A DNA stretch of 64,000 nucleotides, from the IMG/VR virus record IMGVR_UViG_3300033233_000010, positions 1 to 64,000 of that record; one strand, 5' to 3'. The notes under the pieces were generated by a model. It was given only the letters and a program-made list of their open reading frames with translations, did not search any database and was not told where the DNA came from. The position numbers and the translations under genes were made by a program. How positions within the stretch are numbered: the stretch's first letter is position 1; each line of letters opens with the position of its first letter. The DNA is from a virus. Shown in pieces: positions 2,324 to 39,509 of the stretch.

Positions 2324-2404
2324 ATGCCGTGCTGGTGCGCTTGGGGGCTTCTGGCGCTCGCCGGCATCGGCCTCATCGCCTTCATCATCTGGCGATACGT
2401 CTAG
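2324..2404 (+). CDS. small membrane peptide
   Basis: MPCWCAWGLLALAGIGLIAFIIWRYV, single TM. Confidence 0.35.
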   Translation: MPCWCAWGLLALAGIGLIAFIIWRYV

Positions 2405-2543
2405 CGAGCCAGGCGAGAAGCTCGACCACATCGCGCGGCGGGTTCGTGCAGTAGCCGGTCTCAGTCGCCGAGCACTGTCGAATCCAGTAGGGTCCGCGCT
2501 CAGCTGGAATGAAGCGCCGGCAGTTCAAGCAGCGCTCGTTCAC
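2385..2543 (-). CDS. small Cys-rich protein with C-terminal tag (DVVELLAWL)
   Basis: GTG at 2543 overlaps upstream TGA; CxxC...C...C. Confidence 0.55.
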   Translation of the reverse strand: MNERCLNCRRFIPAERGPYWIRQCSATETGYCTNPPRDVVELLAWLARRIAR

Positions 2544-3262
2544 GCGTCGCGCTTGGGGCGCTTGGGCGTCGGTTCGAGCCGCCGGACGTTGAGCCAACCG
2601 ACGCGCATCACCCTACCGTTGAACGCCACGCCGCGGTCGAGCAGGGCGCTTCCGGCGAGCTGCACGGTGAACGACTTCCCGATGTCGACCGCGGGCGCGA
2701 TGACAACGGCCTGCTGCCAGCCGTGCTCCTTCTCCCACTCGCGAGCGGTGAAGATCAGGCGCCCGTGGACGTAATCATCCATCTTGAGATACTCGGCGTC
2801 GGGCGGCCAGCTGCCGTCCCACACCGGAACGCCCTCGGCCCAAGCATCCAGGGCGTCGTCGAGCGTTCGATCCCGTTCGTTCGACCGCCACGCGCGCTCC
2901 TCAAGGCCGGGAACCTCGACCACCTCGCCCTTCGTGATGTGCTGGTTCTGCCAATCGCAGCTGCGCTCGAACCGTCTCTTGGCCTTCTGAATCTTCTCCC
3001 ACTCGTCGAGCTTGGCAAGGTAGGCCAGTCGGTCCTGTATCGCCGCCCGGACGACTTCCTTTCCCTTTTGGAACACGAAACGCTCACCGTTCACCCACTC
3101 GACCGTGATGTAGGTCCGGCCATCTTCGCGGTCGCGCTCGACGAAGCGACAGATGCGCCCCGCCCACCTCGGATCGGTGAACCCGTTATTCAGCACGCGC
3201 CAGAACTTCGGCGGGACTTTCTTCTTGCGCTTCGCGTCGGCGGCGAGCCGAACGAGGGTCAC
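2540..3262 (-). CDS. hypothetical protein
   Basis: GTGA coupling with the 3259 stop; GC3-biased frame. Confidence 0.7.
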   Translation of the reverse strand: MTLVRLAADAKRKKKVPPKFWRVLNNGFTDPRWAGRICRFVERDREDGRTYITVEWVNGERFVFQKGKEVVRAAIQDRLAYLAKLDEWEKIQKAKRRFERSCDWQNQHITKGEVVEVPGLEERAWRSNERDRTLDDALDAWAEGVPVWDGSWPPDAEYLKMDDYVHGRLIFTAREWEKEHGWQQAVVIAPAVDIGKSFTVQLAGSALLDRGVAFNGRVMRVGWLNVRRLEPTPKRPKRDA

Positions 3263-3504
3263 GGCCTCACCTCGATCTTGGCGATCATGTCGACGACGCT
3301 CGGACCTCTGTGGAACGTCCCGCAGGAACACCCGCCGTAGAGCACATCGCATCGGGCGCCCGGCCCCAGGCCCTCGTGCTTCTGCATGAGGTCGATGTCT
3401 AGCGCGCCGTCGTAGAAGCAGCACGCTTTGAGCTGGTCGAACGTGTGGCGATGCCGCTCGGGGTTGGCCTTTATGTCGACGAGGATCTCAGCGCGTCTGC
3501 CCAT
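3259..3504 (-). CDS. Cys-rich hypothetical protein with C-terminal tag (SVVDMIAKI)
   Basis: ORF track; coupled to neighbours. Confidence 0.7.
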   Translation of the reverse strand: MGRRAEILVDIKANPERHRHTFDQLKACCFYDGALDIDLMQKHEGLGPGARCDVLYGGCSCGTFHRGPSVVDMIAKIEVRP

Positions 3505-4051
3505 CGTCGCTCCGCCGCATCCTGGTGTTCGTGTGGAGCACCAAGGCCGGTTCGCCGTATCCGTCGACCGTCACTTCGATCTGGTCATCGTTACTGACAG
3601 CCGCGATGGCGCGGACACCTTCCTCATAGGACGGCGGTGTGGGTCGGAGCCGCCCCACGAGCAGCTTCAGGGCGTCGCGTTCGCCCGCTCTGAGCTTGCG
3701 ACCTTCGCGCAACCGCCGCGAGATCCGCAGCACCCGACTCCGCGCGTCTCCGACGAGCGCATCGAACCGACTGGTCTTCTTGGGAGCGGTCAACCCGTCG
3801 TGGACCAGCGTAGTGGAACGGCTTAGGCCGTCGATCGGGTAGGAGCGCTCAAGGCGCTCGGTTTCCGTTTCGAGACCTCCGCGCGCCACTTCTTTCAGGA
3901 AGGCGTGGGCCGTCTCGACAGAAACCTTGGCCTCCAGCGCCAGCCATCCCGCGAACTTGAGGCTCGCGAGGTCGTCTGCCGGAAAGCCGAGTCCGTCTGT
4001 AACTCGGTCATAGGCACGAGCGAGGCGCCCGCGCTCGGTAGGTTCGGCCAT
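3488..4051 (-). CDS. hypothetical protein
   Basis: ORF track; GGTAGAAC 6 nt upstream of ATG. Confidence 0.75.
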   Translation of the reverse strand: MAEPTERGRLARAYDRVTDGLGFPADDLASLKFAGWLALEAKVSVETAHAFLKEVARGGLETETERLERSYPIDGLSRSTTLVHDGLTAPKKTSRFDALVGDARSRVLRISRRLREGRKLRAGERDALKLLVGRLRPTPPSYEEGVRAIAAVSNDDQIEVTVDGYGEPALVLHTNTRMRRSDDGQTR

Positions 4052-4070
4052 ACCTTCGTTCTACCCGACG

Positions 4071-4391
4071 CTACCCTAGCGCCGGCCCGTCGGGCGTTCG
4101 CCCGTTGCGGATCGCGCGCCCCGTGAGGTCGTCGGGGGTGATCTTGCCCGCCGTCTTGAGGAAGGCGACGGTCTCCTCATAGGTCTCGCCGAGGTTCCGG
4201 CTCAGGTCGATGAGGAGCTGCTTCTGGTGAGGCTTGAGCTTCCGACCCTCGCGCAGCCGCTTCGCGACGGTGTTGATGACCGTCGCGAGACCTGCGCAGA
4301 GCTGGTCGCTCACCGTTACCCGACGGCGTCGGATCTCGACGTGCCCGCGCTGGTGCTGTCCGTCGTTGAGAAACCCATCAAGAGCACTCAC
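4071..4391 (-). CDS. hypothetical protein sharing RLREGRKL motif with downstream gene
   Basis: ORF track; start uncertain. Confidence 0.6.
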   Translation of the reverse strand: MSALDGFLNDGQHQRGHVEIRRRRVTVSDQLCAGLATVINTVAKRLREGRKLKPHQKQLLIDLSRNLGETYEETVAFLKTAGKITPDDLTGRAIRNGRTPDGPALG

Positions 4392-4392
4392 A

Positions 4393-4623
4393 TCAACCTC
4401 GCTTTGCCTCAGAGGCAGCGACGAGCCGGAGCACCGGATCTGTCTCCGCGTCTCTTACGCACCTCTGGAGCCTGAGCGCCAACCCTTCCACGCGGTCGAT
4501 CGGGATACCAGCCCGGGTAGCGATCATCCTCAAGTAGCGTTCGCGATGTTCGGGCACGAGTTTGCCCTGCTCGGCCATGACCGACTTGAGCGCCTCGTAG
4601 AACCGCGTCAACTCGCCCTTCAC
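4393..4623 (-). CDS. hypothetical protein
   Basis: GTG at 4623 overlaps the 4620 stop. Confidence 0.55.
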   Translation of the reverse strand: MKGELTRFYEALKSVMAEQGKLVPEHRERYLRMIATRAGIPIDRVEGLALRLQRCVRDAETDPVLRLVAASEAKRG

Positions 4624-4919
4624 GGCGAACCTCCGTCCGTCGGAGCTGCCGACACTCTCTTTCCGCTCGCTGTCGTGCGGTAACTGACGGTTACTACTTC
4701 CTCGATGTCGAGAAAACGACCCTTGATGAGACGGAAGGTATCCACCCGCGAACCGCCGCCCGTCGGGTCTGGGCAGTGCTCGGCGATGTAGTCGAGCGCG
4801 TCCTTCTTCGTGTCGAATACCGCCATACGTTCGACCTTGCCCGCCGCCGCATCGAAGTCGGGTTGCTCCCACCACACGAAGAACTTGCTTCCGTCGGACT
4901 TTAGATTCTTCTTGTTCAC
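4620..4919 (-). CDS. hypothetical protein
   Basis: ORF track; GTGA coupling on both sides. Confidence 0.7.
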   Translation of the reverse strand: MNKKNLKSDGSKFFVWWEQPDFDAAAGKVERMAVFDTKKDALDYIAEHCPDPTGGGSRVDTFRLIKGRFLDIEEVVTVSYRTTASGKRVSAAPTDGGSP

Positions 4920-5461
4920 GGCGTTCCTCCGTAGGACGAAAGCGCCGGAAGAACGCCTCCAGACGCCTCGATCAATTCCGCCGCCTTGAGCGGGATAACG
5001 CGCCTGCCGCGGACGTGCTCGTAGCGGACCTGACAGCTCGCACAGAGCACTCGAAACTCAGACAGTGTTTTTTCGCCGCATGCGATAGCCTTCGCGTCGG
5101 ATGGGGTGAGGCCGTTGCGGCGAGCCTTCCTAGCCTTGACCGGCGCATCGTGGCCGTTGATGTGATCGACGGTAAGCACTCGGTAGTCGCGTTCTCCGCA
5201 CCAGGCGCAGACCATACCACCAAGCGAAAGCATGAGTTTGACCCGTGCGCGATGACCTGCGACCCGTCTCCACGCGTTGTGCCAATCGCGGTAACGCGCG
5301 TGATTCTTCTTGGAGCGAGCGCGATTAAGGAGAAGATGGCGCCTACAAAAGCGTTTGCTGCGCGCCGTTCGCTTGCGGTTGCACTTGGCGCACAAACCTT
5401 TCTCTAGGTGTTCTTGTTCCCACCTTCGCCCTCGCTCGGCGATGAGCAACTTGTTGGTCAT
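4916..5461 (-). CDS. HNH endonuclease (free-standing, putative homing)
   Basis: CAWCGE...LTVDHING...LCASCQ HNH/zinc motif; more A/T-ending codons than neighbours. Confidence 0.8.
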   Translation of the reverse strand: MTNKLLIAERGRRWEQEHLEKGLCAKCNRKRTARSKRFCRRHLLLNRARSKKNHARYRDWHNAWRRVAGHRARVKLMLSLGGMVCAWCGERDYRVLTVDHINGHDAPVKARKARRNGLTPSDAKAIACGEKTLSEFRVLCASCQVRYEHVRGRRVIPLKAAELIEASGGVLPALSSYGGTP

Positions 5462-5700
5462 CGGCCCTTGTCCTTCGGCTTGTCCGGGTCCAGCGCGGCC
5501 AGCTCCTCGACCACGTCGGGAACGATCTCCTGACCAGGCGGGATGCAGTAAGCGTGCGTTTCGGTGTAACGGCCATCTGCCCGACGGATGAAGAAGCGTT
5601 GCCCCCACACGTAGACCTCGTATGGGATCTGCCAGCGCGGGACGACGAAATCGGCGATCTTCTCGCCGTCGCTCGTATAGAGGGTGACCTTCTCAAACAT
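5458..5700 (-). CDS. hypothetical protein
   Basis: ORF track; ATGA coupling. Confidence 0.7.
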   Translation of the reverse strand: MFEKVTLYTSDGEKIADFVVPRWQIPYEVYVWGQRFFIRRADGRYTETHAYCIPPGQEIVPDVVEELAALDPDKPKDKGR

Positions 5701-6145
5701 CGTCGAGCCCCGCCAGCCTTTCGATCACGTTGAGCTGCTCAGTCACCATCTTCCTCAACTCGGCCTCGTCGATCGAGAGAGAATTGTCCGGGGAGTTGAG
5801 GCGGAGACCACGCCCTGCTGTGGGAGTTGGACCCGGGAACCCGTCTCGACCGTTGAGCTTCCCCGACGCGATGAGCGCTTTAATCCACTCGACAACGGCT
5901 GAGTTGTCGCGCCTTGCCGCCGCTTCCAGCTCGTCAAGCGTGGGGGGCTGGCGGCAGGAGATGCCCAAAGGCAGCGAGACCGGAGAGATCGTCGCCACAT
6001 CCGTGTTGACTCGCACGAGATACCAGCCGTCGGCAGGCACCACGAACGGCTGGGCGAGCGGCACCTCGGACTTCGAGTCGATTCCGATGCGCTCGATACG
6101 CCTGCCGCAGTTGAGCCACACCCGCCTGCTCTCGGCGCCGCTCAC
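5693..6145 (-). CDS. hypothetical protein with C-terminal tag (NVIERLAGL)
   Basis: ORF track; overlapping neighbours. Confidence 0.7.
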   Translation of the reverse strand: MSGAESRRVWLNCGRRIERIGIDSKSEVPLAQPFVVPADGWYLVRVNTDVATISPVSLPLGISCRQPPTLDELEAAARRDNSAVVEWIKALIASGKLNGRDGFPGPTPTAGRGLRLNSPDNSLSIDEAELRKMVTEQLNVIERLAGLDDV

Positions 6146-8687: not shown

Positions 8688-8972
8688 TCAAGACGCCACC
8701 TCACCGACGAGGGCGAGTCCCTCGACCACCGGAACCCCTTCGCAGGAGATCGCGTCGGGCGACGTGTCCGTCTCGGAGCGGGTGTGATCGTCTTGCCACC
8801 GTACCCACACGCGGACCTCCTCCCGAGCTTCACGCTTGCCGGCGAAGAACGCCTCATGGACCACGACCTCGATCCGCGAGACGATGCCGACCCGCGACAT
8901 CCCGTAGAGCGTACGGACGACCGACCCGGCCTCCGCCAACCTGTTGTCACCGAGCTGCGCGTGACGACCCAT
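8688..8972 (-). CDS. SH3-like small protein with C-terminal tag (PVVEGLALV)
   Basis: Strong SD GAGGAGG before ATG; GSVV...GIV...VWVRW pattern. Confidence 0.7.
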   Translation of the reverse strand: MGRHAQLGDNRLAEAGSVVRTLYGMSRVGIVSRIEVVVHEAFFAGKREAREEVRVWVRWQDDHTRSETDTSPDAISCEGVPVVEGLALVGEVAS

Positions 8973-9443: not shown

Positions 9444-10148
9444 ATGGACCTCGCCCTTCGCGTCACCCAGGTGATGCACCGCGCCCTCCGGCCTCTATAC
9501 GGCGACGATTTACTCTGGGGCTGGCTCGCCAGGCGCATCAAGCTCGGGTGCGTGAGCCTGGAGCCGGTGGACATCGTCTTCTTCAACGTCGCGGAGCATC
9601 GCGTCCTCGCGCGTGAGGTGCGGAGAAGCATCTTCGTGCTCGCCGCCGACCCCGACTGGCCCAGCACGACTCAGCGCGACTTCCAGAAGGCCGTCGCGGC
9701 GCTCGACGCGTGGTTCGAGACGATCAAGGAGTGGATCAGCCTCCGGTTCTCACAGGACATGGCGAGGGCGATCACGCCGTTCATTCCGCACGGCGTCTAC
9801 ACCGACATCGCGCTCTTTCTCGGGCTACAAGCTCTGGGGAAGCACAAGGGTCGGTTCCTCCGCTTCTCGCGCTCGGACGGTACGCCGATCGACGTGTTCG
9901 ACGACGGCATCTGCATGACGCGCTCGGCGGCGGTCTACTTCCGCAAGGTGCTCGTGAGAACGTGCGTGATCGTCAGCGCGAAGGACCGCGAGCGGCTGAC
10001 CGACACAACACGGCAGGCACTCTGGCGCCGGGTACTCGAGCTGGACGCGTGGCTCGACTCCGAGGGCCTCGGCGCGGACGCTGTCGAGCGGCTCTCTTAC
10101 GCGGACAAGGGAGTGTCCCTCAAGCGCCCGAAGCGGAGGCGGGGATGA
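9444..10148 (+). CDS. hypothetical protein (near-C-terminal DAVERLS)
   Basis: ORF track; GC3-biased frame. Confidence 0.8.
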   Translation: MDLALRVTQVMHRALRPLYGDDLLWGWLARRIKLGCVSLEPVDIVFFNVAEHRVLAREVRRSIFVLAADPDWPSTTQRDFQKAVAALDAWFETIKEWISLRFSQDMARAITPFIPHGVYTDIALFLGLQALGKHKGRFLRFSRSDGTPIDVFDDGICMTRSAAVYFRKVLVRTCVIVSAKDRERLTDTTRQALWRRVLELDAWLDSEGLGADAVERLSYADKGVSLKRPKRRRG

Positions 10149-10558
10149 GCCTCCGTCACCGACGGTTCGCGCTCTCGCCCAACGCGTGCGACGCGCTGTG
10201 GACCGCGCTCATGCCACTCCTCGAATCGGTGACGGAGCGCTCGCTCGACCGTGCGCGCTTCACGACGCAGGAGTGGATCGACGCGATCCGCCCTCCGGTC
10301 TTCGGCCCGCGCGAGGAGGTCGTCGAGCTGCACCTCGGAGCGGACGCCTACGACAATCTGCTCGCGACGCATCTCTTTCGCGAGACACTCGTGCGCGCGT
10401 ACACGCGCTCCCAGGAGCCGCTCTCCAAGCCGACGAGACGCTTACTCGGACAAGTCCTCTCCGGCGTCGACGAGCTTCTCAACACGCCGGTCGTGGACCG
10501 ACTCGCCCATCTCGTCGAGCTGGACCCTGGTGAGGTTAGACCGTCAGCACCAGACTGA
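10145..10558 (+). CDS. hypothetical protein with C-terminal tag (PVVDRLAHL)
   Basis: ATGA overlap with upstream stop. Confidence 0.75.
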   Translation: MSLRHRRFALSPNACDALWTALMPLLESVTERSLDRARFTTQEWIDAIRPPVFGPREEVVELHLGADAYDNLLATHLFRETLVRAYTRSQEPLSKPTRRLLGQVLSGVDELLNTPVVDRLAHLVELDPGEVRPSAPD

Positions 10559-11900: not shown

Positions 11901-12326
11901 ATGGACCGAGCCCTTATGTCCACCGGACGCGCGGCGCCCTTCGCGGTCGGCGACCGCGTCACCGCGATCACGAAGGACGGAGGCACGACCAAGGTCCGAG
12001 GGACGGTCGCCAAGGCGATCGAACCGCTCCCCGCCGACATCTTCGGCGAGGCTACGTCCGTCTGGGAGTTCGAGGTCGAGTGGGACGACCGGAGCCGCAA
12101 CTTGCTCATCTGCCCAAAGTGCTCTCGCTCGATTCTCACCGCCACAGCCGCAGCCAACGATGACAGCGGCTACTTCGGCATCCGCCGCGGGCAAGCGCAG
12201 GAGTGCTGCGGCGAACGGATGGCGTTCCAGCCGGCGCGTGATAGTCGTGTGAGTGAGTACGAGATCAAGGGGCTCTCAGCGGTCGATCTGATCGCCGGAC
12301 TGGACACTGGAGAGCCACCGGCATGA
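11901..12326 (+). CDS. SH3-like protein with zinc-finger insert and C-terminal tag (SAVDLIAGL)
   Basis: FAVGDRV...GTV...FEVEWD; CPKC...CC. Confidence 0.75.
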   Translation: MDRALMSTGRAAPFAVGDRVTAITKDGGTTKVRGTVAKAIEPLPADIFGEATSVWEFEVEWDDRSRNLLICPKCSRSILTATAAANDDSGYFGIRRGQAQECCGERMAFQPARDSRVSEYEIKGLSAVDLIAGLDTGEPPA

Positions 12327-12583
12327 CGCCTGCCGCCCTTCGCAATCTCCGTCTCGGCGATCTCGTCTTCGCCCACGACGAGAAGTTGGGGTGGCGCAAA
12401 GCGACTGTGCTCAACGTCGTCGTCGAACGGGTGTCGAATCCGTCCAAGAAGGTCGTCGCCGGGACGGTCTATGCCGTGTGGGTTCGGATGGAGCACAACG
12501 ACGAGGCGCTCTCGCTCGGTCCGAGCGAGATTCGGGAAGCCGGCATCGTGGACAGCATCGCCTCACTGGAGCGGAAACCGTGA
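12323..12583 (+). CDS. SH3-like protein with C-terminal tag (GIVDSIASL)
   Basis: LGDLV...ATV..V...VWVR. Confidence 0.75.
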   Translation: MTPAALRNLRLGDLVFAHDEKLGWRKATVLNVVVERVSNPSKKVVAGTVYAVWVRMEHNDEALSLGPSEIREAGIVDSIASLERKP

Positions 12584-12840
12584 ACGGTGGAGCCTCGAAT
12601 GGACTGCCCTTCGACTTCTACGCCTCGTGCGGCGAGGTCGCCGTGCGCACGCACACGATCGGCGGCTCGGTGCTCATGGAGTTCACAACCGACCCGGTCG
12701 AGCTTCTCGCCTCGCTGGCCGACCCGAATCGCCTCCCACGACTGTGGGCGCCGACGCCTGAGTCCTTCGATGCGGGGTCGTGGGTCATCATCGACCGTCC
12801 GAGCATCACCGACGAGGGTATAAAGACGGAGACGCGCTGA
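12580..12840 (+). CDS. hypothetical protein
   Basis: GTGA coupling. Confidence 0.55.
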   Translation: MNGGASNGLPFDFYASCGEVAVRTHTIGGSVLMEFTTDPVELLASLADPNRLPRLWAPTPESFDAGSWVIIDRPSITDEGIKTETR

Positions 12841-12854
12841 AACCGAGGTGATCT

Positions 12855-13295
12855 GTGGTCCACATCTTCAACCGATTCGGCCAAGGCGACAAGGTCGACC
12901 TGATCGTCCGCGGCTCGGAGACATTCCGCGGCACGCTTCAGCAGGTCAGCAATCAGGGGATCGCTGGCGGCAAGCTCTCGCTCGGCGTCGGCGCGCAAAA
13001 CGCCTTCCAGAAGGCCAAGGAAGAAGCGCAGGGCAGCAGGCGCCGGGCCGTCATCGACCACATCGTCGACGAGAACGAGATTCGCATCATGCTCTGCGAC
13101 ACGATGGAACTGATGTGGGTTTCGCCGCTCGATCTCGAACCGCTCGACGCCGTGAGCGTTCTCGCCGACACCCTCACGTCCAAGTCGCTCAAGGAGCAGC
13201 TCAACGAGCTGGAGACGGAGGAGAAGGCGCAGAGCGAGGTCCGTCCGCAGGTTCACCCGTTCCAAGACGAGATCGGCGAAGCGGGCGCAAAGTGA
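12855..13295 (+). CDS. SH3/Sm-like protein with internal tag (DAVSVLADTL)
   Basis: FGQGDKV...GTL; GAGG SD. Confidence 0.7.
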   Translation: MVHIFNRFGQGDKVDLIVRGSETFRGTLQQVSNQGIAGGKLSLGVGAQNAFQKAKEEAQGSRRRAVIDHIVDENEIRIMLCDTMELMWVSPLDLEPLDAVSVLADTLTSKSLKEQLNELETEEKAQSEVRPQVHPFQDEIGEAGAK

Positions 13296-13510
13296 CCGTC
13301 AAGACCGACGAGTTTGGCCGCGCGAGCGTCAGGTGCCCCCACTGTCGGTCGGCGATCACCGTGTCGGCGTTCCAGACCAGGATCGGAAGCCACAAGTCGG
13401 CGCTCCGACGCCACACCGACCGGTGCGTCGGGGCGACGCCCGAAGATCGCGCCCACTACCGCAAGCACGGCAGCTGGCCGAACGCCAACCGGAAGAAGGT
13501 CACTCGGTGA
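13292..13510 (+). CDS. small C2H/C zinc-finger protein
   Basis: CPHC...LRRHTDRC; GTGA coupling. Confidence 0.65.
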   Translation: MTVKTDEFGRASVRCPHCRSAITVSAFQTRIGSHKSALRRHTDRCVGATPEDRAHYRKHGSWPNANRKKVTR

Positions 13511-14112
13511 ACGCCGATCCCATCAAGCGGGACGACGTTGTCTGGGTCAGGTGGCAGGAGCGTTTCGGCCCCGACTGGAGCCCAACCCAGTCCGTCACGC
13601 ACACGGATCGCCCGGAGGATTGGGTTCGCGGCAAGGTGCTCGAAGTCATCGGCTTCTCCGAGTGGCCGCCGCTCCGCATCGCCATCGGCACCGGTCTTTG
13701 CGAGGACTTCTGGCCCGGCAACTACCACCGGATCGACGAACCGATCAGCCTTCTCGCGCACGCCGACGGCGCGTGCATCTACTGCCTCGGGAACATCCAC
13801 GGGCGTCTCGTCTCGCGCTTCGGCACGATCAAGGCGCGCTGCGAGGTCTGCTATCCGCCGATCTTCGCAACACCGGAGATGTGGACGATCCCGCTGCGGA
13901 ACGTAGCGGTGACGGGGAACACGCTCGCGGTCAAGATGACGTGGACGATGGCTACGACCCAGACTGGCCCGGACCCGCTCCCGTCGTCGCGCCCGTCCCG
14001 TCCGGGCTTTCGGGAGCCGGCTCGGGGACGGTTCCGACCGCCGGTGTCGCCGGGAGAGCGGCAGCAGCGCCTCCATCGGATGCGCGATCATGAGCGTCAT
14101 CCGCAACGATGA
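13507..14112 (+). CDS. SH3-like N-terminal domain plus CxxC zinc module
   Basis: IKRDDVVWV...GKV; EPISLLAHA; CIYC...CEVC. Confidence 0.65.
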   Translation: MNADPIKRDDVVWVRWQERFGPDWSPTQSVTHTDRPEDWVRGKVLEVIGFSEWPPLRIAIGTGLCEDFWPGNYHRIDEPISLLAHADGACIYCLGNIHGRLVSRFGTIKARCEVCYPPIFATPEMWTIPLRNVAVTGNTLAVKMTWTMATTQTGPDPLPSSRPSRPGFREPARGRFRPPVSPGERQQRLHRMRDHERHPQR

Positions 14113-14320
14113 CCTGTGAACGCGTCCCATTCGATGCGCGCAGAACTTCGAGAGTGCGCTCGGGCAACGCTTCGAGCAGCGAAAGGACCGCCCGCACCGG
14201 GCCGGGCACCGTCCCGCCGTTCTCCCAACGAATGACGCTGCTTCGGCTTACGCCGAGCATGCTTGCGAGATGGACTTGCGTGAGCCCGGCGCGTTCGCGG
14301 GCCCGCTTTGCCAGGCTCAT
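13952..14320 (-). CDS. XRE-family HTH transcriptional regulator
   Basis: ARERAGLTQVHLASMLGVSRSSVIRWENG. Confidence 0.85.
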   Translation of the reverse strand: MSLAKRARERAGLTQVHLASMLGVSRSSVIRWENGGTVPGPVRAVLSLLEALPERTLEVLRASNGTRSQVIVADDAHDRASDGGAAAALPATPAVGTVPEPAPESPDGTGATTGAGPGQSGS

Positions 14321-14391
14321 CGGTTACGAGATGTTCTACCCTTTGGGCGAGGCGGACGCGCGAGGTATGAGAGGTGACGCAGGAGGGCCCA

Positions 14392-15870: not shown

Positions 15871-16422
15871 ATGAAGCTCGACATGACTGGGCCGTGTTCG
15901 TCGTGCCCCTTCCGTTCCGACAAGCTGTTCTTCCTCGGGCCAGAGCGGGCGCGCGAGATCGCCGATGCGCTCCTCGCCGACAAGACCTTCGCGTGCCACA
16001 AGACGGTCCAGTACGACCGGCAGGAGCGCGAGGATGGCGAGCCGGAAGACGACCGAGTTGACCGCAGCAATCCGTGTCTCGTCGACCTCGACAAGCTGTG
16101 GGGCCGTGACGCTCGAACGGCGCCGCCCGACCCGAAGGAGCAGCACTGCGCCGGGGCCATGATCATCCTCGAAAAACTCGACCGCCCGAACCAGTGGATG
16201 CGGATCGGCGAGCGGCTCGGGATGTACGATCGCCGGAAGCTCGACATGAAAGCCCCCGTCTTCGACGACTTCGACGGATTCGTCGAGTCGATGGAGGCGC
16301 TCGAAGGTAGAGGGTCAGCATGCCGTCGGAGAGCCACTGCCCGCGCTGCGGAGAAGGTTACGAGCAGGGCTACTGCCCGACGCCGGACTGCGACCGGGAA
16401 AGGGCGGAAGAGGTCGAGGTGA
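15871..16422 (+). CDS. Cys/His metal-binding hypothetical (PCxxCPF...FxCH...CAG; DUF6283-like)
   Basis: Motif pattern recalled, not searched. Confidence 0.6.
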   Translation: MKLDMTGPCSSCPFRSDKLFFLGPERAREIADALLADKTFACHKTVQYDRQEREDGEPEDDRVDRSNPCLVDLDKLWGRDARTAPPDPKEQHCAGAMIILEKLDRPNQWMRIGERLGMYDRRKLDMKAPVFDDFDGFVESMEALEGRGSACRRRATARAAEKVTSRATARRRTATGKGRKRSR

Positions 16423-16853
16423 GCCGGGAGACGATCTTCACGCTCGACCCCTCGAATCACGACGACGTGATGCGGTATACCCGCGACACGTCGGAGCCGT
16501 TCTTTGTGAACGGCTTACGCTGCGAACCGGGCGAGGAGTTCGTGCCGCATTTCGGTGATAAAGTGGCCGTCGTGATCGCCAACGTCGTTGACGAGATCGC
16601 CAAGCTCGACGAGCCGGCGCAGGCCACCGCGCCCCCAGAGCCCTTCGTTGTTGTTCCCTGCGTGAGCCCGAGACACCGTCGGATCAACGACATCCTCATC
16701 GTCGACCCGGCGTGCGGGACATGCCTCGGTCTCGGGATCGTCCGGGTCATGCGAGAGCACATCCCCGTCGTGCATCGCCGTGGCTCGGACTGGGTCCGCG
16801 GTGACGATGCCGTCTCCAGGCTCGCAGACCTCGACGGCCCACCGACTTCGTAA
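16320..16853 (+). CDS. Cys-rich protein with two copies of the tag (NVVDEIAKL, DAVSRLADL)
   Basis: GGTAGAGG 6 nt before ATG; CPRC and CGTC motifs. Confidence 0.7.
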   Translation: MPSESHCPRCGEGYEQGYCPTPDCDRERAEEVEVSRETIFTLDPSNHDDVMRYTRDTSEPFFVNGLRCEPGEEFVPHFGDKVAVVIANVVDEIAKLDEPAQATAPPEPFVVVPCVSPRHRRINDILIVDPACGTCLGLGIVRVMREHIPVVHRRGSDWVRGDDAVSRLADLDGPPTS

Positions 16854-16926: not shown

Positions 16927-17217
16927 ATGCGCGAGCCCGATTGGAAGCTCAGGTTGGAGTTCATCGGCGAGAACGCTGACAATCTGTCAGGCAGGTCGGC
17001 AAAGTTTTGGCAGGCCGAAACTTACGGACGCGAGTTCGTCCGTAGGTGGGGGAAGATCGGCGCCGGGGGCCAGACCATGCGCGAGTCCTTCGGCTCGTCC
17101 TACGAGGCGAAGTCAGCCGCGCTCAGGATGGTCGAGGAGAAGCGCAAGAAGGGCTACGTCAAGGAGGTCGACATCATCTCCCTGATCGGGTCGCTCGTGA
17201 AGGACGAGGTGGCGTAG
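16927..17217 (+). CDS. stand-alone WGR-domain protein with C-terminal tag (DIISLIGSL)
   Basis: KFW...RWGKIGAGGQ...A......EKRKKGY. Confidence 0.85.
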   Translation: MREPDWKLRLEFIGENADNLSGRSAKFWQAETYGREFVRRWGKIGAGGQTMRESFGSSYEAKSAALRMVEEKRKKGYVKEVDIISLIGSLVKDEVA

Positions 17218-18150: not shown

Positions 18151-18359
18151 GCTACCCGGACGATCCCACGCTCGCGTTCAGGAACATCCTCATCGAGTCG
18201 TGTGCCGGCATGGCCGTGGCGATCGGCGTGGCGTTCGTCGCCCTCTTCTACTTCCGGCTGTCGCCCGGTGGCGCGGCTGTTCCGACCGCCATCGTCGCAG
18301 TAGCCGTCATGAATGCGGCACACGACCGACTCAAGGGGAATCGAAAGGACCGGACATGA
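18147..18359 (+). CDS. small two-TM membrane protein
   Basis: Two hydrophobic stretches. Confidence 0.6.
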   Translation: MSYPDDPTLAFRNILIESCAGMAVAIGVAFVALFYFRLSPGGAAVPTAIVAVAVMNAAHDRLKGNRKDRT

Positions 18360-18991
18360 TCGAGTTCGACGAGCTGACGGAGCGACTCCTCAACGGCAGC
18401 GACAGCGTGATCGACAAAGCGATCACGCTCGCGACCGTGGCCCACGAGGGGCAGGTCCGCAAGTACACCAACGAGCCCTACATCGAGCACCCCAAGCGCG
18501 TCTCGTGGCGCGTGTCGATGGTGCCCGGCGCTTCGGCTGAGATGATCGCCGCGGCAGTCCTCCACGACACGCTGGAGGACACCGATCTCTCGCCCGAGCA
18601 GATCGAGCGCTACTGCGGCCCGGTCGTGCTCCGCTACGTTGACGGTTGCACCGACAAGTTCGGCCCCGAGGACCACCCCGGGAACCGGAAGGTCAGGAAG
18701 CAGCTCGAAGCGGAGCGGCTCGGGAAGGAGCCGCGCGAGGTCCAGGTGATCAAGCTCGCCGACATCTTCGACAACCTCGTCGGCACCGACCCCAACGACT
18801 CGTTCTCAGAGGTCTTCCTGCGGGAGAAGGTCGCGCTCATGGCGCTCATGGCGCTGATCAGCGGCGCCGATGCGTTGCTCAAGGCCGAGGTCGACGCGGC
18901 TGGCGAGAAGCTCCGCATCGCGTTCGACGCCGCCGCGGCGGTGAAGCTCGCAGCCAAGGCGGCGGCCAGGGCCGCCAAGGGCCCTCAGTGA
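18356..18991 (+). CDS. HD-domain small alarmone ((p)ppGpp) hydrolase-like protein, Mesh1/SAH family
   Basis: A...A..AHEGQVRK...EPYIEHP..V...AAAVLHDTLEDT...V...TD...IKLAD..DNL. Confidence 0.85.
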   Translation: MIEFDELTERLLNGSDSVIDKAITLATVAHEGQVRKYTNEPYIEHPKRVSWRVSMVPGASAEMIAAAVLHDTLEDTDLSPEQIERYCGPVVLRYVDGCTDKFGPEDHPGNRKVRKQLEAERLGKEPREVQVIKLADIFDNLVGTDPNDSFSEVFLREKVALMALMALISGADALLKAEVDAAGEKLRIAFDAAAAVKLAAKAAARAAKGPQ

Positions 18992-22443: not shown

Positions 22444-22663
22444 CCGGGTCGTCGAGCTTCGTCGCTGGCGAGCCTTCGACGCGAAGCTGCGCACCGGCGT
22501 CATCGACGCCGTTCACCATCGGATCGGAGGTCTGACCTTCTTCGAGATCGTGTGGGACGACGGCGAGACCGGATACGGCGAGCGCGGCGTGCCGTCGGGG
22601 TGGGTCGAGCCCCAGGACGCCGTGTCAGCGCTCGCGGAGCTGGCCGATGACGACGCCGGCTGA
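22430..22663 (+). CDS. SH3-like array member 5 (tag DAVSALAEL)
   Basis: VGSRV...GVIDAV...FEIVWD. Confidence 0.75.
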   Translation: MEVGSRVVELRRWRAFDAKLRTGVIDAVHHRIGGLTFFEIVWDDGETGYGERGVPSGWVEPQDAVSALAELADDDAG

Positions 22664-23168
22664 GTGGTTTCAAGTCGGGACGGTGGTGATCTACGTCGGG
22701 GGCGAGATCCCGCACGCCATCGGTCGCCGCGGCGTCGTAACCCACGCGCCCAGGCCCGCGCGTCGCAACATGAGCCCGAAGACGCGGTGGCACTGGGTCG
22801 GGATGCGCGTGCGATTCGACGGCGAGTCGGAGGGCATCTTCGCCTGGCCCGATCAATACGAAGTGGTGGGCGCTGTGGATCTTCTGGCTGAGATCGAAAT
22901 TCCGGCGTCAGCTTCCGTCAGGAAGCGCGTTCGTTCAGTTGTGGAGGACTCTGTGCCCGCGACTCAGTGGCTCGACGCGCGCGTTCAGTCGGTGTCGGCG
23001 AAAGGCGTGGAGCCCGGCCACCTCGGGACGGTCGAGGAGGTCGGGCAGGGCGCCAAAGCCGGCTTCGTGTGGGTCCGGTGGGATAGCTCGCCAGCGCGCT
23101 TCCGCGGGAAGGCCACTCGCGTGGATACGGACGCCCCGGAGCTGCTCGATCACCCGAGGATGCCGTAG
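22647..23168 (+). CDS. SH3-like array member 6, two SH3-like units with tag between (GAVDLLAEI)
   Basis: FQVGTVV...GVV...VRFD, then GTVEEV...WVRWD. Confidence 0.7.
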   Translation: MTTPAEWFQVGTVVIYVGGEIPHAIGRRGVVTHAPRPARRNMSPKTRWHWVGMRVRFDGESEGIFAWPDQYEVVGAVDLLAEIEIPASASVRKRVRSVVEDSVPATQWLDARVQSVSAKGVEPGHLGTVEEVGQGAKAGFVWVRWDSSPARFRGKATRVDTDAPELLDHPRMP

Positions 23169-30737: not shown

Positions 30738-31133
30738 TCAGAGCCCGAACCGCTTCTTGATCGTCTGAGCGGCGCGGTCGCGAGCCTGCACGGCGTTCGA
30801 GTTGATCGCGACCGGCGGAGGCTTGTCGTAGAGCGCGGCCAGCCGATCGACGATCGAGGTCCCAGCGCCGTGGGCCACACGCTCGGCGAGATCGGCGAGC
30901 GGCGCGTAGACGGCCTCGCCCGTACAGACCAGGCCGACGAGGGTCGAGACGAGCCACGCCAGGAAGTCGTGGTCGTCGAGCACCTTCGAGAGATCCAGAA
31001 CACCCTCGCTGGGGTTCCACAGCTCGGATAGCTTATCCACACAGTCTGAGTCGAGCCCAGCCGCCACCGCGGCGGGTCTGAGTACCCCGTGTTGGAACCA
31101 CCGCGCCGTCTCGGCGTCGAGCTGAAAGCGCAT
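30738..31133 (-). CDS. hypothetical protein with tag (SIVDRLAAL)
   Basis: TATCCT 7 nt before ATG 31133. Confidence 0.65.
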   Translation of the reverse strand: MRFQLDAETARWFQHGVLRPAAVAAGLDSDCVDKLSELWNPSEGVLDLSKVLDDHDFLAWLVSTLVGLVCTGEAVYAPLADLAERVAHGAGTSIVDRLAALYDKPPPVAINSNAVQARDRAAQTIKKRFGL

Positions 31134-31155
31134 ACCCGAGAGGATAGTCCAAGCC

Positions 31156-31527
31156 ATGTCGAAGCCCAAGCCCGCGGCGCCACGAGCCGAGTTTTTCGTC
31201 GGCGACGTGCCGCCGCCCATCGTAAAGCAGGTCAAGAAGGCGATCGAGGAGCCCGCCGCGACCGACGACTCGATCGACCTCCCGCGCAACAAGCAGCTCG
31301 TCGTTGCACACGATGTCCCGATGGAGGACGACCCGGGCGCGCTTCTCCGGCAGCTCACCGCCGGGATGCCCCCCGGCGCGATGCGCCCCGATGAGATCGC
31401 GGACGAGGCCAACCGCGCAAGGCACAACGCGCACATCGACCTCCTCCGTATGACCGACGCGGAGCAACGCCGGCAGCGTCGGGCGAAGCTGGCCGAGGAG
31501 CGGGGTAAGCAGAAGCGCAAGAGGTAG
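31156..31527 (+). CDS. hypothetical protein
   Basis: ORF track; divergent from 31133. Confidence 0.7.
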   Translation: MSKPKPAAPRAEFFVGDVPPPIVKQVKKAIEEPAATDDSIDLPRNKQLVVAHDVPMEDDPGALLRQLTAGMPPGAMRPDEIADEANRARHNAHIDLLRMTDAEQRRQRRAKLAEERGKQKRKR

Positions 31528-32514: not shown

Positions 32515-33051
32515 GCGAGCAGGTCAACATCCACGGCAACATCACGTTCTCCGACAACTACGGCAAGCAGTACGAAGTGGTCGCTGAGATCAAAAAGCTC
32601 CGCGCTTCGGTCGAGCTTCTCCTCAAGCTGTCCACTGTCCGACTCGGTTCGGTGAACGTCGATGCGCTGGATGCGCTCAAACTCCACTGGTTCCAGAGCG
32701 TCTTCGGTAACTTCGGCGTCGGATGGAGCGCGTCGCGCGTCATCCTCGGCGCAGCCCGGCTACGACATAGAGCACTTGGAGTCCGGGGTCAAGACGGGGC
32801 TCCCGAACGACCTCACGACACCCGACAACCGGTGGAACTTCGTCAACACGCTCAAGCTCATCATCGCGTCCAAGGTGTTCGAGCCGGCCCCCTTGTCGGT
32901 CGAGAGCCTGATCCGCGCCGTCATCAGTAACACAGCCACGCTCGATCCCATCTCACAGGTAGGCGCGTTGGCAGCTATCTGCCCGGAGATCAAGCCGGAC
33001 GGCGTGCGCCCGGCGGAGTCCCTTGCTCTGGCGTCCCAACTAGCTTCATGA
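32511..33051 (+). pseudogene. hypothetical gene with apparent +1 frameshift near 32750
   Basis: Coding-like codon bias switches from the 32511 frame to the 32662 frame. Confidence 0.4.
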
Positions 33052-33835
33052 GCCACGGGGCCTTCATCGAGCGTTCGGGGCCGCGGGCGAGTCGCTTGTT
33101 GTGCCACCGGGTTCCGGTCCCGGCGACCGCGTCTCTGGGGTTCATGTTCCCCGGGAGGTCGTTCTTCATCGGCAGCGCGTAGCCCTGGCCGTCTGAGCCG
33201 GGGATCATAGCCGCGTTGGCTCCGATCGCCCGATCGTAGAGGCTCTCCGCCTTGGGCTCGCGTCCGGTTCGTACCTTGACCGCCTGGATCGCCGCCTTCT
33301 TCCCGAGTCCCTTGGCGCCGCGGATGGCGACGGCGAGTCCACGGATGCCGTCGGCGTCGATCCACGCTCGCTTGAAGGTCTCGATCGGAACATGCCCGTA
33401 CTTTGGCGCACGAACCCGCGGGTCCATGAAGTAGACGCTTCCGTTGTCGACCGTGACCACGACGACATAGTGCCCGTAGGCGTGTTTGTCGATGCGCGCG
33501 TTGGCCGAGGGCCTGGCCTGAAATTCGACGATCACCGTCTCGCCGCCCCTGACCCTTCGCCGGAGGTCGTCGATGGTCATGCGCCTGACGAGGTCGGCAC
33601 GAAGCCCGAGGTGTCGCGCCAGAGCAGCCATCGTGGGAGCCTCGGTCCCGCGCTTCCAGTTGGTCCCGAGCGGCTTCATGATCTGGCGCTCGGATTCGGC
33701 GGGAAGCCGCCAGTAGCGGAAGATCGAGAGAAGCGCCGCGGCGCCGCACGAGTAGCTCGTCGACTGGAAGACGTGAGGAACCGAGAGAGCTTCGAGCCCG
33801 CCCGACGCCTCCAACAGTCGATCGAAGAGACTCAC
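32990..33835 (-). CDS. C39-like cysteine peptidase with N-terminal SLFDRLLE-A leader
   Basis: VPHVFQSTSYSCGAAAL (Gln/Cys), GHYVVV (His), YFMDP (Asp). Confidence 0.85.
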   Translation of the reverse strand: MSLFDRLLEASGGLEALSVPHVFQSTSYSCGAAALLSIFRYWRLPAESERQIMKPLGTNWKRGTEAPTMAALARHLGLRADLVRRMTIDDLRRRVRGGETVIVEFQARPSANARIDKHAYGHYVVVVTVDNGSVYFMDPRVRAPKYGHVPIETFKRAWIDADGIRGLAVAIRGAKGLGKKAAIQAVKVRTGREPKAESLYDRAIGANAAMIPGSDGQGYALPMKNDLPGNMNPRDAVAGTGTRWHNKRLARGPERSMKAPWLMKLVGTPEQGTPPGARRPA

Positions 33836-33896
33836 GGGTTCGAGTTTAACGTTTGTCGGCTTTTCGGGGTAGAACGGAGCGCTTAGAGGAGAAACC

Positions 33897-34280
33897 GTGG
33901 CCGACAAGATGGCGAAGTCCGCGTCAGTAACGACGACAACGACGAAGGTGATCGACACCAAGCCGGCGATGTCCGACGCCGACGCGAAGTGGTTCGAGAG
34001 CCTGAAGGGCGTCCTCCGGCTCTACGAGAACACGCTCGCTTCGAGCGGGGTCATCCGCGCGAAGGCGACCGACGGGTCGGAGCTGACGCGCGTCTCGCGG
34101 CTCGGTCACGCGAGATGGATGCTCGACCAGCTCCTCCAAGGGGTCGAGCCGCGGCACCGCGATCCGCTCGTCGCGCTCGCCCACTTCGGCATGATCCAGG
34201 GGCTCCTCTGGGGCGAGAACGTCTTCCCGATGTCGGCCCTTCACGACCACGCTCGCCAGCTCTACCCCGAAACCAGGTGA
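33897..34280 (+). CDS. hypothetical protein
   Basis: SD GAGGAG; upstream GGTAGAAC. Confidence 0.75.
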   Translation: MADKMAKSASVTTTTTKVIDTKPAMSDADAKWFESLKGVLRLYENTLASSGVIRAKATDGSELTRVSRLGHARWMLDQLLQGVEPRHRDPLVALAHFGMIQGLLWGENVFPMSALHDHARQLYPETR

Positions 34281-34687
34281 ACGCGCATCTCGTTGGGTCA
34301 CGCCCGGTTGTGGGGGCTTCGACGGAGTTCTACATCCGGCTGGACGACGATGACACCGGACGCATCTTCGTCTGCGACGGAAACAAGCAGCGCCTCCCCA
34401 TCGTTCGGGCGGCTGTTGTCGATGGGAATCGCCCGGTGTCGAGCATCGTGCAGAAGCCGCCTGGCGCCCTGGAGACGCGAGCCAACGCCGTCTACGTGAA
34501 CGCCCCGATGGGCGGGGAGACCCTCGTCGTGGTGGTTGGACGCGCACTCTACGATCAGTTCGGGGAAAGTAACGACCCCGACAAGACTTCCGTGTATCTT
34601 ATCTGCCAGTCGATGACCGTCATCGACAGGGTCGGCGAGTTGGCCGAGGGCATGGATCGTCAGCCCGATGCCGAGAGGAAACCGTAG
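34277..34687 (+). CDS. hypothetical protein with C-terminal tag variant (TVIDRVGEL)
   Basis: GTGA coupling. Confidence 0.7.
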   Translation: MNAHLVGSRPVVGASTEFYIRLDDDDTGRIFVCDGNKQRLPIVRAAVVDGNRPVSSIVQKPPGALETRANAVYVNAPMGGETLVVVVGRALYDQFGESNDPDKTSVYLICQSMTVIDRVGELAEGMDRQPDAERKP

Positions 34688-36008: not shown

Positions 36009-36075
36009 CGAGCATCTGGAGCAGGTTCTCAAGCGTGGCCCCGACAAGTTCATGGACGACTACTACGTCGGCTAG
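35920..36075 (+). pseudogene. orphaned original 5' end of thyX (51 codons)
   Basis: SD AAGGAG; MAKIKVVDELPPEVVAMLAALYSRSPKSVDEHLEQVLKRGPDKFMDDYYVG* is colinear with the ThyX N-terminus at 36915. Confidence 0.85.
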
Positions 36076-38246: not shown

Positions 38247-38248
38247 CG

Positions 38249-38554
38249 ATGGCGCCGAAGGTGACTCCCGGCGTCTACCGCCACTACAAGGGGGGCCTCT
38301 ATCGCGTGTTCGGCGTTGCGGACTACACCGGCGAGCACGGCGATGTGTTCCCGAGCGCGCACCACCCGAAGACGGAAGGGTTTCCCGAGGGCGAGAAGCT
38401 CGTGGTCTACATCGGCCTCTACGACAACCCGCGCGGCAACCGCCTTTGCACAAGGCCGGTGCGTGAGTGGGTCGCGAAGCTCGTGCTCACCGCGAAGGAC
38501 GGCTACCCGGGAGGCCGAGTCGTCGAGCAGCGCTACGAGCGGATCGGAGACTAG
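38249..38554 (+). CDS. DUF1653-like protein
   Basis: GVYRHYKGGLYRV...LVVY..LY...RP..EW. Confidence 0.8.
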   Translation: MAPKVTPGVYRHYKGGLYRVFGVADYTGEHGDVFPSAHHPKTEGFPEGEKLVVYIGLYDNPRGNRLCTRPVREWVAKLVLTAKDGYPGGRVVEQRYERIGD

Positions 38555-39045
38555 GTCTTCGTCAGCGACTTGATCGCGCCCCGCCGGGCAGCTTCCACGC
38601 TCGGCGGGGCCTTGCAGATCGTCTTGGCGAGCGCCGTGTTGGGCATGGGGAAGCGCGGACCCGGCACGAAGACCGGGTTCGGCTCGACCTTCGAGTCGAG
38701 CATGAGGTCGATCTGCACCTCGCGCGGCGGCGTCCCGACCCGTTGAATGAGCCCGGCGCGCTGCAAGCCGGTGAGGATGCCGCCCAGGTCACGCGGGTCG
38801 ACCGTTACGCCAGCGTGCGCGATCACCTCAGCCGAAGTCCAGCCGAACCGCACGAGCTGTGTGTAGGTGACGACAAGCGTCTTCGTGTACTCGCTCTCCT
38901 CGGCCTTGGCGAAGAGGAAGTCACTAGTGACTTGCCACTTGCATTCGGAGCAGGAGAGCTTGGCGCGACGCGCCCACGCCGTCCACAGAGCGACGGGCGG
39001 AATGGTGCGACCGCAGCCCTCACAAGCGAGATTCTTGCCTGACAT
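38551..39045 (-). CDS. zinc-ribbon plus winged-helix-like protein
   Basis: CEGC...CSEC, then a wHTH-like segment; GGTATAAC 8 nt upstream. Confidence 0.6.
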   Translation of the reverse strand: MSGKNLACEGCGRTIPPVALWTAWARRAKLSCSECKWQVTSDFLFAKAEESEYTKTLVVTYTQLVRFGWTSAEVIAHAGVTVDPRDLGGILTGLQRAGLIQRVGTPPREVQIDLMLDSKVEPNPVFVPGPRFPMPNTALAKTICKAPPSVEAARRGAIKSLTKT

Positions 39046-39098
39046 CTCAGGGAGTTATACCCGAGGCGCTTTGCATCGGCGAGCTGCCGGCACGGATT

Positions 39099-39509
39099 CT
39101 ACTTCCCGAGCGTGTCGACCATTTTGTCGACGATGGAGCGCGCTTGGAACTTCTCCACGTCGGCGACGACTCGCTGCATCGACCTCACGTAGTTCCCCGA
39201 AGGTGGCCCACCCTGCCACGGATGCAGCCCTTGGCAGACGATGCGGAGTTGTCGCTTGAATGCTTCCAAGAGATCCCTCTGGTCGGGCAAGAGGAGCAAG
39301 GTGCGCGTCTTGCCGATCTTCATCCCGAGGTCGATTGCCTTGGCGAGATCGCGTTCGAGAGGGGTCGCCGGCTTCTCCCCCGGGGTACGCGCTCCGATGC
39401 CGTAGGCGTAGTCAACGAGATACTCCTCGATCACTCGGGCCGTGGGCGTTCGCATCTTGAGCGTGACGCCGTGGGCCTTGGTCGGTCGATCGTCCACCGT
39501 CATCGTCAT
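39099..39509 (-). CDS. hypothetical protein with C-terminal tag variant (SIVDKMVDTL)
   Basis: GGTAGAAC 7 nt before ATG. Confidence 0.7.
   Translation of the reverse strand: MTMTVDDRPTKAHGVTLKMRTPTARVIEEYLVDYAYGIGARTPGEKPATPLERDLAKAIDLGMKIGKTRTLLLLPDQRDLLEAFKRQLRIVCQGLHPWQGGPPSGNYVRSMQRVVADVEKFQARSIVDKMVDTLGK

Follow-up and report, generated by a model that had tools for sequence, protein, structure and literature searches.

Introduction

Shared terminal address peptides are already known as a kind, as illustrated by the capsid-targeting sequence (CTS) of bacteriophage T4, the encapsulation peptides of bacterial microcompartments (BMCs), and the cargo-loading peptides of encapsulins. In T4, the diverse internal proteins (IPI-III and Alt) have only the CTS in common; this N-terminal sequence of approximately 10 residues marks a handful of proteins, and the prohead protease removes it after binding to the scaffolding core (PMC3012670). 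BMC encapsulation peptides are poorly conserved amphipathic helices of 15-20 residues, located at either the N- or the C-terminus with a variable linker, which mediate docking or co-aggregation (PMC4594438, PMC12339742), whereas the C-terminal peptides of encapsulin cargo direct these proteins into an HK97-fold shell (PMC8346489). Here, we analyzed a stretch of 64,000 nts (hereafter the window; positions 1 to 64,000 of the IMG/VR virus record IMGVR_UViG_3300033233_000010), for which a preliminary description had proposed that more than 20 unrelated phage proteins share a C-terminal helical tag. This tag is a variant of the above kind of peptide, with a partner that we only infer.

The virus record (G000) is 121,783 bp long, with 64.7% G+C and a CheckV completeness of 42%, and the window covers its first 64 kb. 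Because G000 proteins are also found on a 254,565-bp contig, the virus is probably a jumbo phage of approximately 250 kb. A total of 111 C-terminal tags were collected over G000 and three related records (G001, G002, and G003), about 20 of them in this phage and about 90 in its three relatives; all four records are fragments (42-58% complete). The related records encode a gp23-type major capsid protein that is 27-31% identical to the versions of T4-like phages, and the lineage is therefore a distant T4-like one.

By analogy, the T4 CTS is the closest precedent for the tag in such phages. Both are short conserved peptides of T4-like phages that are portable between cargoes and are found on diverse, fast-evolving small proteins; for the tag, the 111 bodies fell into 95 clusters by BLAST. 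The tag differs from the CTS in that it is C-terminal (the stop lies no more than three residues past the helix in 78 of the 111 cases), has no consistent cleavage site, and occurs on approximately 11-64 proteins per fragment record. Similar to a BMC encapsulation peptide, it is a short amphipathic end helix on unrelated cargo of one system, but it comprises only about 11 residues, is conserved in sequence, is almost always C-terminal, and usually lacks a linker. BMC shell genes (PF00936) were absent from the fragments G000-G003, in which positive controls were detected. The likeness to encapsulin cargo-loading peptides lies in the C-terminal position and in the fact that T4-type capsid proteins likewise have the HK97 fold. 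Encapsulin peptides bind in an extended form, have other consensus sequences, and usually serve one cargo per shell. A more distant likeness is to the poxvirus ankyrin proteins with a PRANC/F-box-like end, in which variable recognition modules are joined to a constant C-terminal element for a common machine; PRANC is a folded domain that binds a host ubiquitin-ligase component and is several times longer than the 11-residue tag. On balance, we lean towards the view that the tag is a docking (address) helix bound by one common partner.

Identification of a conserved C-terminal tag helix

Genes of G000 were called by a simple codon-usage model trained on long open reading frames (ORFs), three missed ORFs of the preliminary description were added, and G001-G003 were processed likewise. 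On our own gene calls, the regular expression of the preliminary description gave 16 matches, 12 of which were within 30 aa of the stop, compared to 0.15 in total and 0.02 within 30 aa in shuffled proteins (500 shuffles). With the three ORFs added, 20 matches were obtained in G000 (0.14 in shuffled proteins). Fifteen of them were C-terminal against an expectation of 0.02, so the proposed enrichment near the stop is borne out. We also built a position-specific scoring matrix (PSSM) of 13 columns from 20 C-terminal instances of G000, which is circular for its own training set. At ≥14 bits, it yielded 27 matches, 19 of them within 25 aa of the stop (0.33 and 0.05, respectively, in shuffles), and no match in the reversed G000 sequences; it also picked up eight untrained copies at this threshold and further ones at lower scores. 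The enrichment over shuffles thus exceeds 100-fold, mostly near the stop.

The three related records were found by running a degenerate DNA pattern for the tag peptide against IMG/VR, and were fetched whole. Among the 80 loci listed, most contained single chance matches, including wrong-frame ones, and three contigs stood out by having many matches that end at stop codons: G001 (120 kb, 279 called genes, probably over-called), G002 (131 kb, 182 called genes), and G003 (160 kb, 215 called genes), all of which are high-GC. The unaltered regular expression gave 75, 21, and 30 matches in G001, G002, and G003, respectively (0.13-0.26 in shuffles), which extends the motif to related phages. At ≥12 bits, the PSSM identified 64, 11, and 19 C-terminally tagged proteins in the same records (no more than 0.23 in shuffles); the C-terminal count is 64 for G001 and ranges over 11-16 for G002 and 19-22 for G003. 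No close relative was found among cultured phages (INPHARED; megablast and tblastn), and searches of IMG/VR with single proteins (the WGR bearer, a barrel, a 940-aa neighbor, and the class II ribonucleotide reductase NrdJ) returned either nothing or unrelated tagless loci.

In 84 loci (1.16 Mb, six high-GC) of other phages, which included 80 IMG/VR loci with more distant HD proteins as a negative control, only one match was observed, and none was C-terminal. In bacterial loci chosen for the pattern (0.6 Mb), four of the 59 matches listed were near a stop, with no more than two per locus, and in bacterial genomes the matches listed were single and away from protein ends. A separate motif, G-x-G-V-V-D-R-L-A-E-L, mimics the tag and gives false positives. 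It was detected in frames of approximately 450-530 aa (one incomplete) of unrelated phages (L088, L101, L114, L115, L127, L147, and L156), where it sits internally, approximately 100-140 residues before the end; judged by this motif, the frames may encode terminase large subunits.

Conservation acts on the peptide rather than on the DNA, because the codons of every conserved residue vary: third positions are free, with GTC/GTG/GTA, GAG/GAA/GAC/GAT, and CTG/CTC/CTA/CTT/TTG all in use. The codon table thereby agrees with the protein-level conservation and synonymous-site differences noted in the preliminary description. When compared with a relative whose HD protein is 70% identical to that of G000, the tag cores of four orthologue pairs agree at 33 of 36 residues and the bodies at 218 of 316.

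The consensus of the 111 tags reads hydrophobic-x-P-x-[S/D]-[A/V]-[V/I]-[D/E]-x-L-[A/G]-x-L-[A/V]-x-stop and corresponds to a helix of approximately 11 residues. In the sequence logo, a hydrophobic residue lies two positions ahead of the frequent Pro, and the N-cap is S or D in 80 of the 111 tags. Position 4 is V/I in all of them and is followed by D/E in 93; L/I occupies position 7 in 109, A/G position 8 in 110, and L/I/V position 10 again in all 111, after which come A/V plus one residue. The S-x-x-D/E spacing is that of a classical helix capping box and the conserved side chains share one broad face, so that the tag, which is predicted to be helical, resembles an N-capped amphipathic helix. 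Its net charge is acidic (-1 to -2), whereas the bodies are near neutral. The bearers are small (59-197 aa, median approximately 90) and fast-evolving. Their genes are distributed over both strands, with as many as six in a row, and 77 of 110 extend into the start of the gene that follows. In the proteins, the helix mostly follows directly after the last strand. No Pfam or PHROG family at threshold matched either the tag or the barrel-helix family described below (DUF4314 from the Atlas is a lead only), and a full-text literature search for peptide strings and shared phage tags found no description of either.

Protein domains carrying the tag

The preliminary description regarded the attached domains as unrelated. 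This holds for WGR, DUF6011, Cys-rich, and helical bodies but not for eight bearers of the window, which are paralogues: the six genes of an array at 21343-23168 and the genes at 12323 and 8688. Their common pattern is GDRV...W...GRRGT-V...V-WD...vP...E-tag. In an AlphaFold2 model based on the paralogue alignment (mean pLDDT 79), five strands form a barrel, after which the tag appears as helix 73-82. Foldseek matched this model to nitrile hydratase beta C-terminal, PetP, Spt5 KOW, and CarD-like barrels, with probabilities up to 1.0 but E-values of at least 0.01, and a profile search of PDB sequences pointed to the MIB/HERC2 domain of MIB1 and the Tudor-like domain of ARF. The modeled barrel thus belongs among the SH3/Tudor/KOW-like folds.

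Conservation within this family is highest in the helix (top-residue frequency of 0.57 on average, versus 0.40 for the body). A profile of the eight barrels retrieved 31 representative proteins among 1.84 billion, all of which are metagenomic and all of which bear the helix. A search for barrels with the helix columns left out found 41 in the four genomes, and the helix comes next in at least 38 of them; the helix is therefore inherited with the domain in the barrel family. Five metagenomic proteins (P0141, P0142, P0147, P0153, and P0155) consist of four to eight tandem units of SH3-like barrel, tag helix, and KKNP linker, which are the only multi-copy form of the barrel-helix unit.

Other bearers have clearly different bodies. 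The WGR bearer matches PF05406 with an E-value of 1.3e-16, and the Pfam match ends at residue 80 while the tag begins at residue 82. One bearer in G002 contains a DUF6011 domain (Pfam E-value of 1.9e-11), and the remaining non-barrel bearers include several Cys-rich families that resemble zinc ribbons as well as all-helical-looking proteins. A barrel-only HMM recognized 26 of the 111 bearers; by eye, perhaps half are barrels. Tag quality is similar on both kinds of body (18.8 bits for barrels versus 17.7 bits for the 56 bodies without barrel signature, p=0.27). The motif is thus a portable, protein-level helix with a strong C-terminal bias that is found on different bodies, and to this extent the preliminary description is supported.

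Two-helix version of the tag and virion protein fragments

In approximately 12 proteins of the four genomes, a longer form of the tag, E-P-S-A-V-D-R-L-A-A-L-x-D-P, is followed by a second helix, A-A-x-K/R-V/I-x-x-W/Y-D-E. Such two-helix proteins lie at 120353-120998 (L003:16353-16998), 112937-113437, and 120995-121783 in G000, at 55593-56355 in G001, and at 12193-14372, 137851-138105, 143988-144371, and 150553-151651 in G003. In the AlphaFold2 model of the module, a four-residue loop connects helix 22-30 to a long helix, 35-62. The block-mean pLDDT is 97-98 over residues 21-40, and the two helices would presumably pack on each other. A fold search with this model gave no meaningful match, and no orphan partner helix (candidate receptor) stood out in a scan with the second-helix profile.

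Several segments found ahead of the module are derived from virion proteins. They correspond to residues 83-125 and 419-458 of the gp23-like capsid protein (43-60% identity, E-values down to 1e-9) and to residues 580-609 and 865-910 of a protein of approximately 920 aa (31-57% identity), which is probably a tail sheath protein on the basis of a weak PHROG match (E=0.001). Judging from these alignments, the fusion of the two-helix module to capsid and sheath fragments is the sole substantiated link to the virion. Another such link, suggested in the preliminary description by the N-termini of the structural-block genes at 60806 and 61025, does not stand, as both score -5.6 and are not tags. The N-terminus of 61025-61297 reads ..TRRPLLSL.., an LxRRPLxS/T pattern.

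Distribution of tags in the window

All but three of the motif instances listed in the preliminary description were present at or near the genes concerned. The weak items are those at 21023 (4.2 bits), 35154 (7.4 bits), and 13507 (8.1 bits), and SIVDKMVDT at 39111-39137 (- strand), at the end of gene 39099-39512, is borderline (9.8 bits). Among the copies thought to close a first domain, those in 13507 and 35154 are therefore weak, and DAVSVLADT at 13146-13172 (+ strand), which closes the first part of gene 12855-13295, is an internal tag of lower quality (11.6 bits). On the other hand, three copies were absent from that list: one in gene 5458-5700, an internal one in gene 12580-12840, and an insertion in the NrdJ gene.

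On the - strand, the first tag is DVVELLAWL (2406-2432; 24.5 bits), located 6 aa before the stop of ORF 2385-2597, which has a Cys-rich body and whose reality is less sure because it was not selected by the gene caller. It is followed by SVVDMIAKI (3274-3300; 20.6 bits), 4 aa before the stop of the Cys-rich 81-aa protein of gene 3259-3504, by DVVEELAAL (5491-5517; 23.9 bits), 10 aa before the stop of gene 5458-5700, and by NVIERLAGL (5705-5731; 27.5 bits), 3 aa before the stop of gene 5693-6121, whose 142-aa product looks helical from its sequence. PVVEGLALV (8706-8732) belongs to the barrel protein 8688-8972, and all nine of its core residues are kept in the orthologue P0130. At higher coordinates on the same strand, SIVDRLAAL (30831-30857; 26.5 bits) lies 30 aa before the stop of ORF 30738-31253, the start of which is uncertain. 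In addition, the tag-like helix SVVDGLANL (42621-42647; 18.5 bits) is found inside the NrdJ gene 39909-42893. According to the alignment, it is part of an insertion of approximately 15 residues in an N-terminal loop, at which four homologues are gapped.

The + strand contains PVVDRLAHL (10487-10513), 14 aa before the stop of gene 10145-10558, which encodes a 137-aa ORFan that retrieved only itself from 5.8 billion proteins, and SAVDLIAGL (12276-12302), 7 aa before the stop of gene 11901-12326, a barrel with a Cys-rich insert. GIVDSIASL (12542-12568) belongs to the barrel protein 12323-12583 and keeps seven of nine core residues in the orthologue P0129, and DPVELLASL (12691-12717; 19.9 bits) is internal, 40 aa before the stop of gene 12580-12840. 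The protein 16320-16853 has two tags, the internal NVVDEIAKL (16581-16607; 21.5 bits) and the C-terminal DAVSRLADL (16806-16832; 22.8 bits), and its N-terminal CxxC pairs suggest a putative zinc ribbon. DIISLIGSL (17170-17196) follows right after the WGR domain in gene 16927-17217. DVVERIATL (19927-19953; 22.2 bits) lies 7 aa before the stop of gene 19630-19977, and LVIEGLGAL (20567-20593; 19.8 bits) lies 3 aa before that of the Cys-rich gene 20351-20605. The array at 21343-23168 consists of six overlapping tandem genes, each of which encodes a barrel and then the tag, with the tag cores at 21544-21570, 21781-21807, 22155-22181, 22399-22425, 22616-22642, and 22869-22895 according to the alignments; in the last gene, a second barrel is present and its helix has decayed. 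The last of the + strand sites is TVIDRVGEL (34616-34642; 20.4 bits) in gene 34310-34687, at a distance of 14 aa from the stop. Tag-like matches also occur in the second half of G000, near 77, 84, 93, and 113-121 kb; most of these are internal, and many are of the two-helix type.

Amid the small-gene arrays lies the gene of an HD_4 ((p)ppGpp-hydrolase-like) protein (18356-18991). A protein with 70% identity to it is encoded on a 287,531-bp contig, together with orthologues of four tagged proteins, and such close HD relatives (70% identity) were found only in Logan/ENA assemblies. The upstream regions of genes are enriched in the element GGGTAGAAC (also GGTAGGA), which has 41 sites in G000 (in the window, e.g., 4065, 6753, 9430, 11887, 16901, 19604, 26593, 35140, 39524, and 61311) and lies approximately 14 or 26 bases before start codons. 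This element occurs in the small-gene arrays as well as before structural and replication genes and may represent a -10 promoter box from which leaderless or short-leader mRNAs are made. In a scan intended to date the genes, none of the four records contained the T4 late-promoter consensus TATAAATA.

Discussion

Since a capped helix has been selected on different folds, in an enzyme loop, and in four genomes, an autonomous protein-protein docking element is the best explanation for the tag. Its hydrophobic face (V/I, L, the small A/G, and L) would pack on a helix or in a groove of a common partner, and in this way many different small binding domains would be gathered onto, or delivered to, one place. 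We infer that this partner is a single one. Several observations weigh against the docking reading. None of the candidates considered was identified as a partner of the tag, and a linker before the helix is usually absent, unlike in classical targeting peptides. On the barrels, the helix was modeled with only moderate confidence (pLDDT 60-76). In addition, a single barrel family makes up a quarter to half of the 111 bearers; the sharing of the tag is therefore partly due to common descent, and in the barrels the helix may be a mere part of the fold.

As for the partner, the order of preference is the prohead core or capsid, then the phage MoxR AAA+/von Willebrand factor A (vWA) pair, with another phage or host hub taking the rest. 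A prohead core or capsid partner, like that of the T4 CTS, is a tentative possibility, and it is rather unlikely that the tag is a C-terminal loading signal for dozens of hypervariable proteins that are packed in the head and injected with the DNA. Prohead loading fits the T4-like lineage, the small hypervariable cargo, and the capsid and sheath fragments on the long form of the tag. If so, the two-helix capsid/sheath fusions would be the anchors in the particle, and a CTS-like system would have moved to the other end of the protein and become approximately tenfold larger. Capsid loading is not favored, because the tag is acidic and its genes lie in early-looking arrays away from the head genes. 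The C-terminal position of the tag and its presence on a ribonucleotide reductase also speak against head loading, and L-[A/G]-E, which would fit the L/I-x-E cleavage site of the prohead protease, was found in only 36 of the 111 tags, the remainder mostly having D, A, or R at position 9.

G000 has genes for a MoxR-type AAA+ protein (102116-103387) and for a CobT-like vWA protein (98433-100145). The metal sites of vWA domains take acidic ligands, and one position of the tag is nearly always D/E; a role of this pair as the partner would nonetheless be improbable. Among these fragments, which are 42-58% complete, AAA_5 was found in G000, G002, and G003 and CobT_C in G000 only, and no MoxR or vWA gene is present on the fragment of G001, the record with the most tags.

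G000 also encodes a DnaN-like clamp, a DnaB-like helicase, and a C39-like peptidase. Bacterial sliding-clamp binding motifs are of the QL[S/D]LF type, a pentapeptide or hexapeptide with Gln plus Leu/Phe, and the tag logo was found to have no conserved Gln or aromatic residue. The C-terminus of the primase, considered as a clue to a helicase partner, was dropped since the G003 orthologue is without the motif. The DnaB-like helicases themselves (104565-106172 in G000, that is, L003:565-2172, and 2936-5680 in G003) have an acidic tail ending in ..IDF or ..IPF that resembles the C-terminal tail of bacterial SSB. The C39-like peptidase was likewise rejected as a partner, as it has no counterpart on G001-G003 and the tag contains no double-glycine site. 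This papain-like protein of the Peptidase_C39 type (E=2e-9) is encoded at 32990-33958 (- strand), within the tag-rich region.

The tags might also need no separate hub if they bind each other, or the two-helix versions, and form small helical bundles, in which case the hairpin proteins with capsid and sheath pieces could be anchors. The wide hydrophobic face (positions 3, 4, 7, 8, 10, and 11), the requirement for A/G at position 8, which suits close helix-helix packing, and the very high local confidence of the AlphaFold2 model of the two-helix module are all consistent with such self-association, as are the two-tag proteins (16320-16853, and 13353-13637 in G003), the four to eight tandem tags of P0141, P0142, P0153, and P0155, and the capsid (43-60% identity) and probable sheath (31-57%) segments in the hairpin proteins. 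However, 9-11 residues make a short helix for a bundle that is to be stable by itself, and since the second-helix profile scan gave no standout orphan partner helix, we consider self-association unlikely. We regard as more unlikely still that the tag is a family-intrinsic structural helix of expanded SH3/Tudor-like barrels without a shared partner, where non-barrel cases would be unrecognized barrels or fusions retaining an old 3' end. This would explain why all 31 metagenomic representatives bear the helix, including those with tandem barrel-helix-KKNP repeats, why at least 38 of 41 barrels are followed by it, and why many bodies not recognized by the HMM look barrel-like by eye. It does not account for the WGR and DUF6011 bearers, which are certainly not barrels, for the equally good tags on the 56 bearers without barrel signature, or for the copy inserted in the NrdJ loop; moreover, a relic 3' end would lose its peptide conservation while synonymous sites drift.

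That the tag ends small proteins of early-looking arrays is also compatible with a degradation signal, by which the exposed C-terminal helix would flag a class of small and perhaps early proteins so that a protease or unfoldase of the phage or host removes them at a set time. C-terminal degrons are the usual bacterial solution, and the MoxR-type AAA+, vWA, and C39-like proteins of G000 could be counted on the same side. Such a signal is nevertheless very improbable, given that the tag lies anywhere from 0 to 16 residues from the carboxyl end, that the last residues are polar or charged, and that the known ClpX, ClpA, Tsp, and FtsH tails are, to our knowledge, unlike the ends of the tags. An internal-loop copy in NrdJ, an enzyme that the phage needs, and the lack of a counterpart of the C39-like peptidase on the three other records point in the same direction. 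A nucleic-acid signal in the coding frame (a hairpin, a recombination box, or the ribosome-binding site of the overlapping gene that follows) could be suspected from the overlap of 77 of 110 tagged genes with the next start and from the fact that the codons GCG-GAG (A-E) or GGG-GAG (G-E) at positions 8-9 may create a GGAG with suitable spacing. It is contradicted by the codon table, which shows more than one codon for each conserved residue and, in most cases, an A/G-E/D pair that does not resemble a Shine-Dalgarno sequence. At position 9, D, A, or R is as frequent as E, and both internal copies and copies before long gaps exist, so that we give this explanation almost no weight.

If one partner reads the helix, the tag would place as many as a quarter of all genes in these uncultured jumbo phages, almost all of them ORFans, in a single functional class that is recognizable from sequence alone, and the tag peptide used as bait would provide a direct handle on what this class does. 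As a compact, natural, and portable peptide, the tag might also send foreign proteins to the same destination. Should the loading reading be true, sequence alone would define the injected arsenal of these phages, which would comprise more than 60 proteins in one relative.

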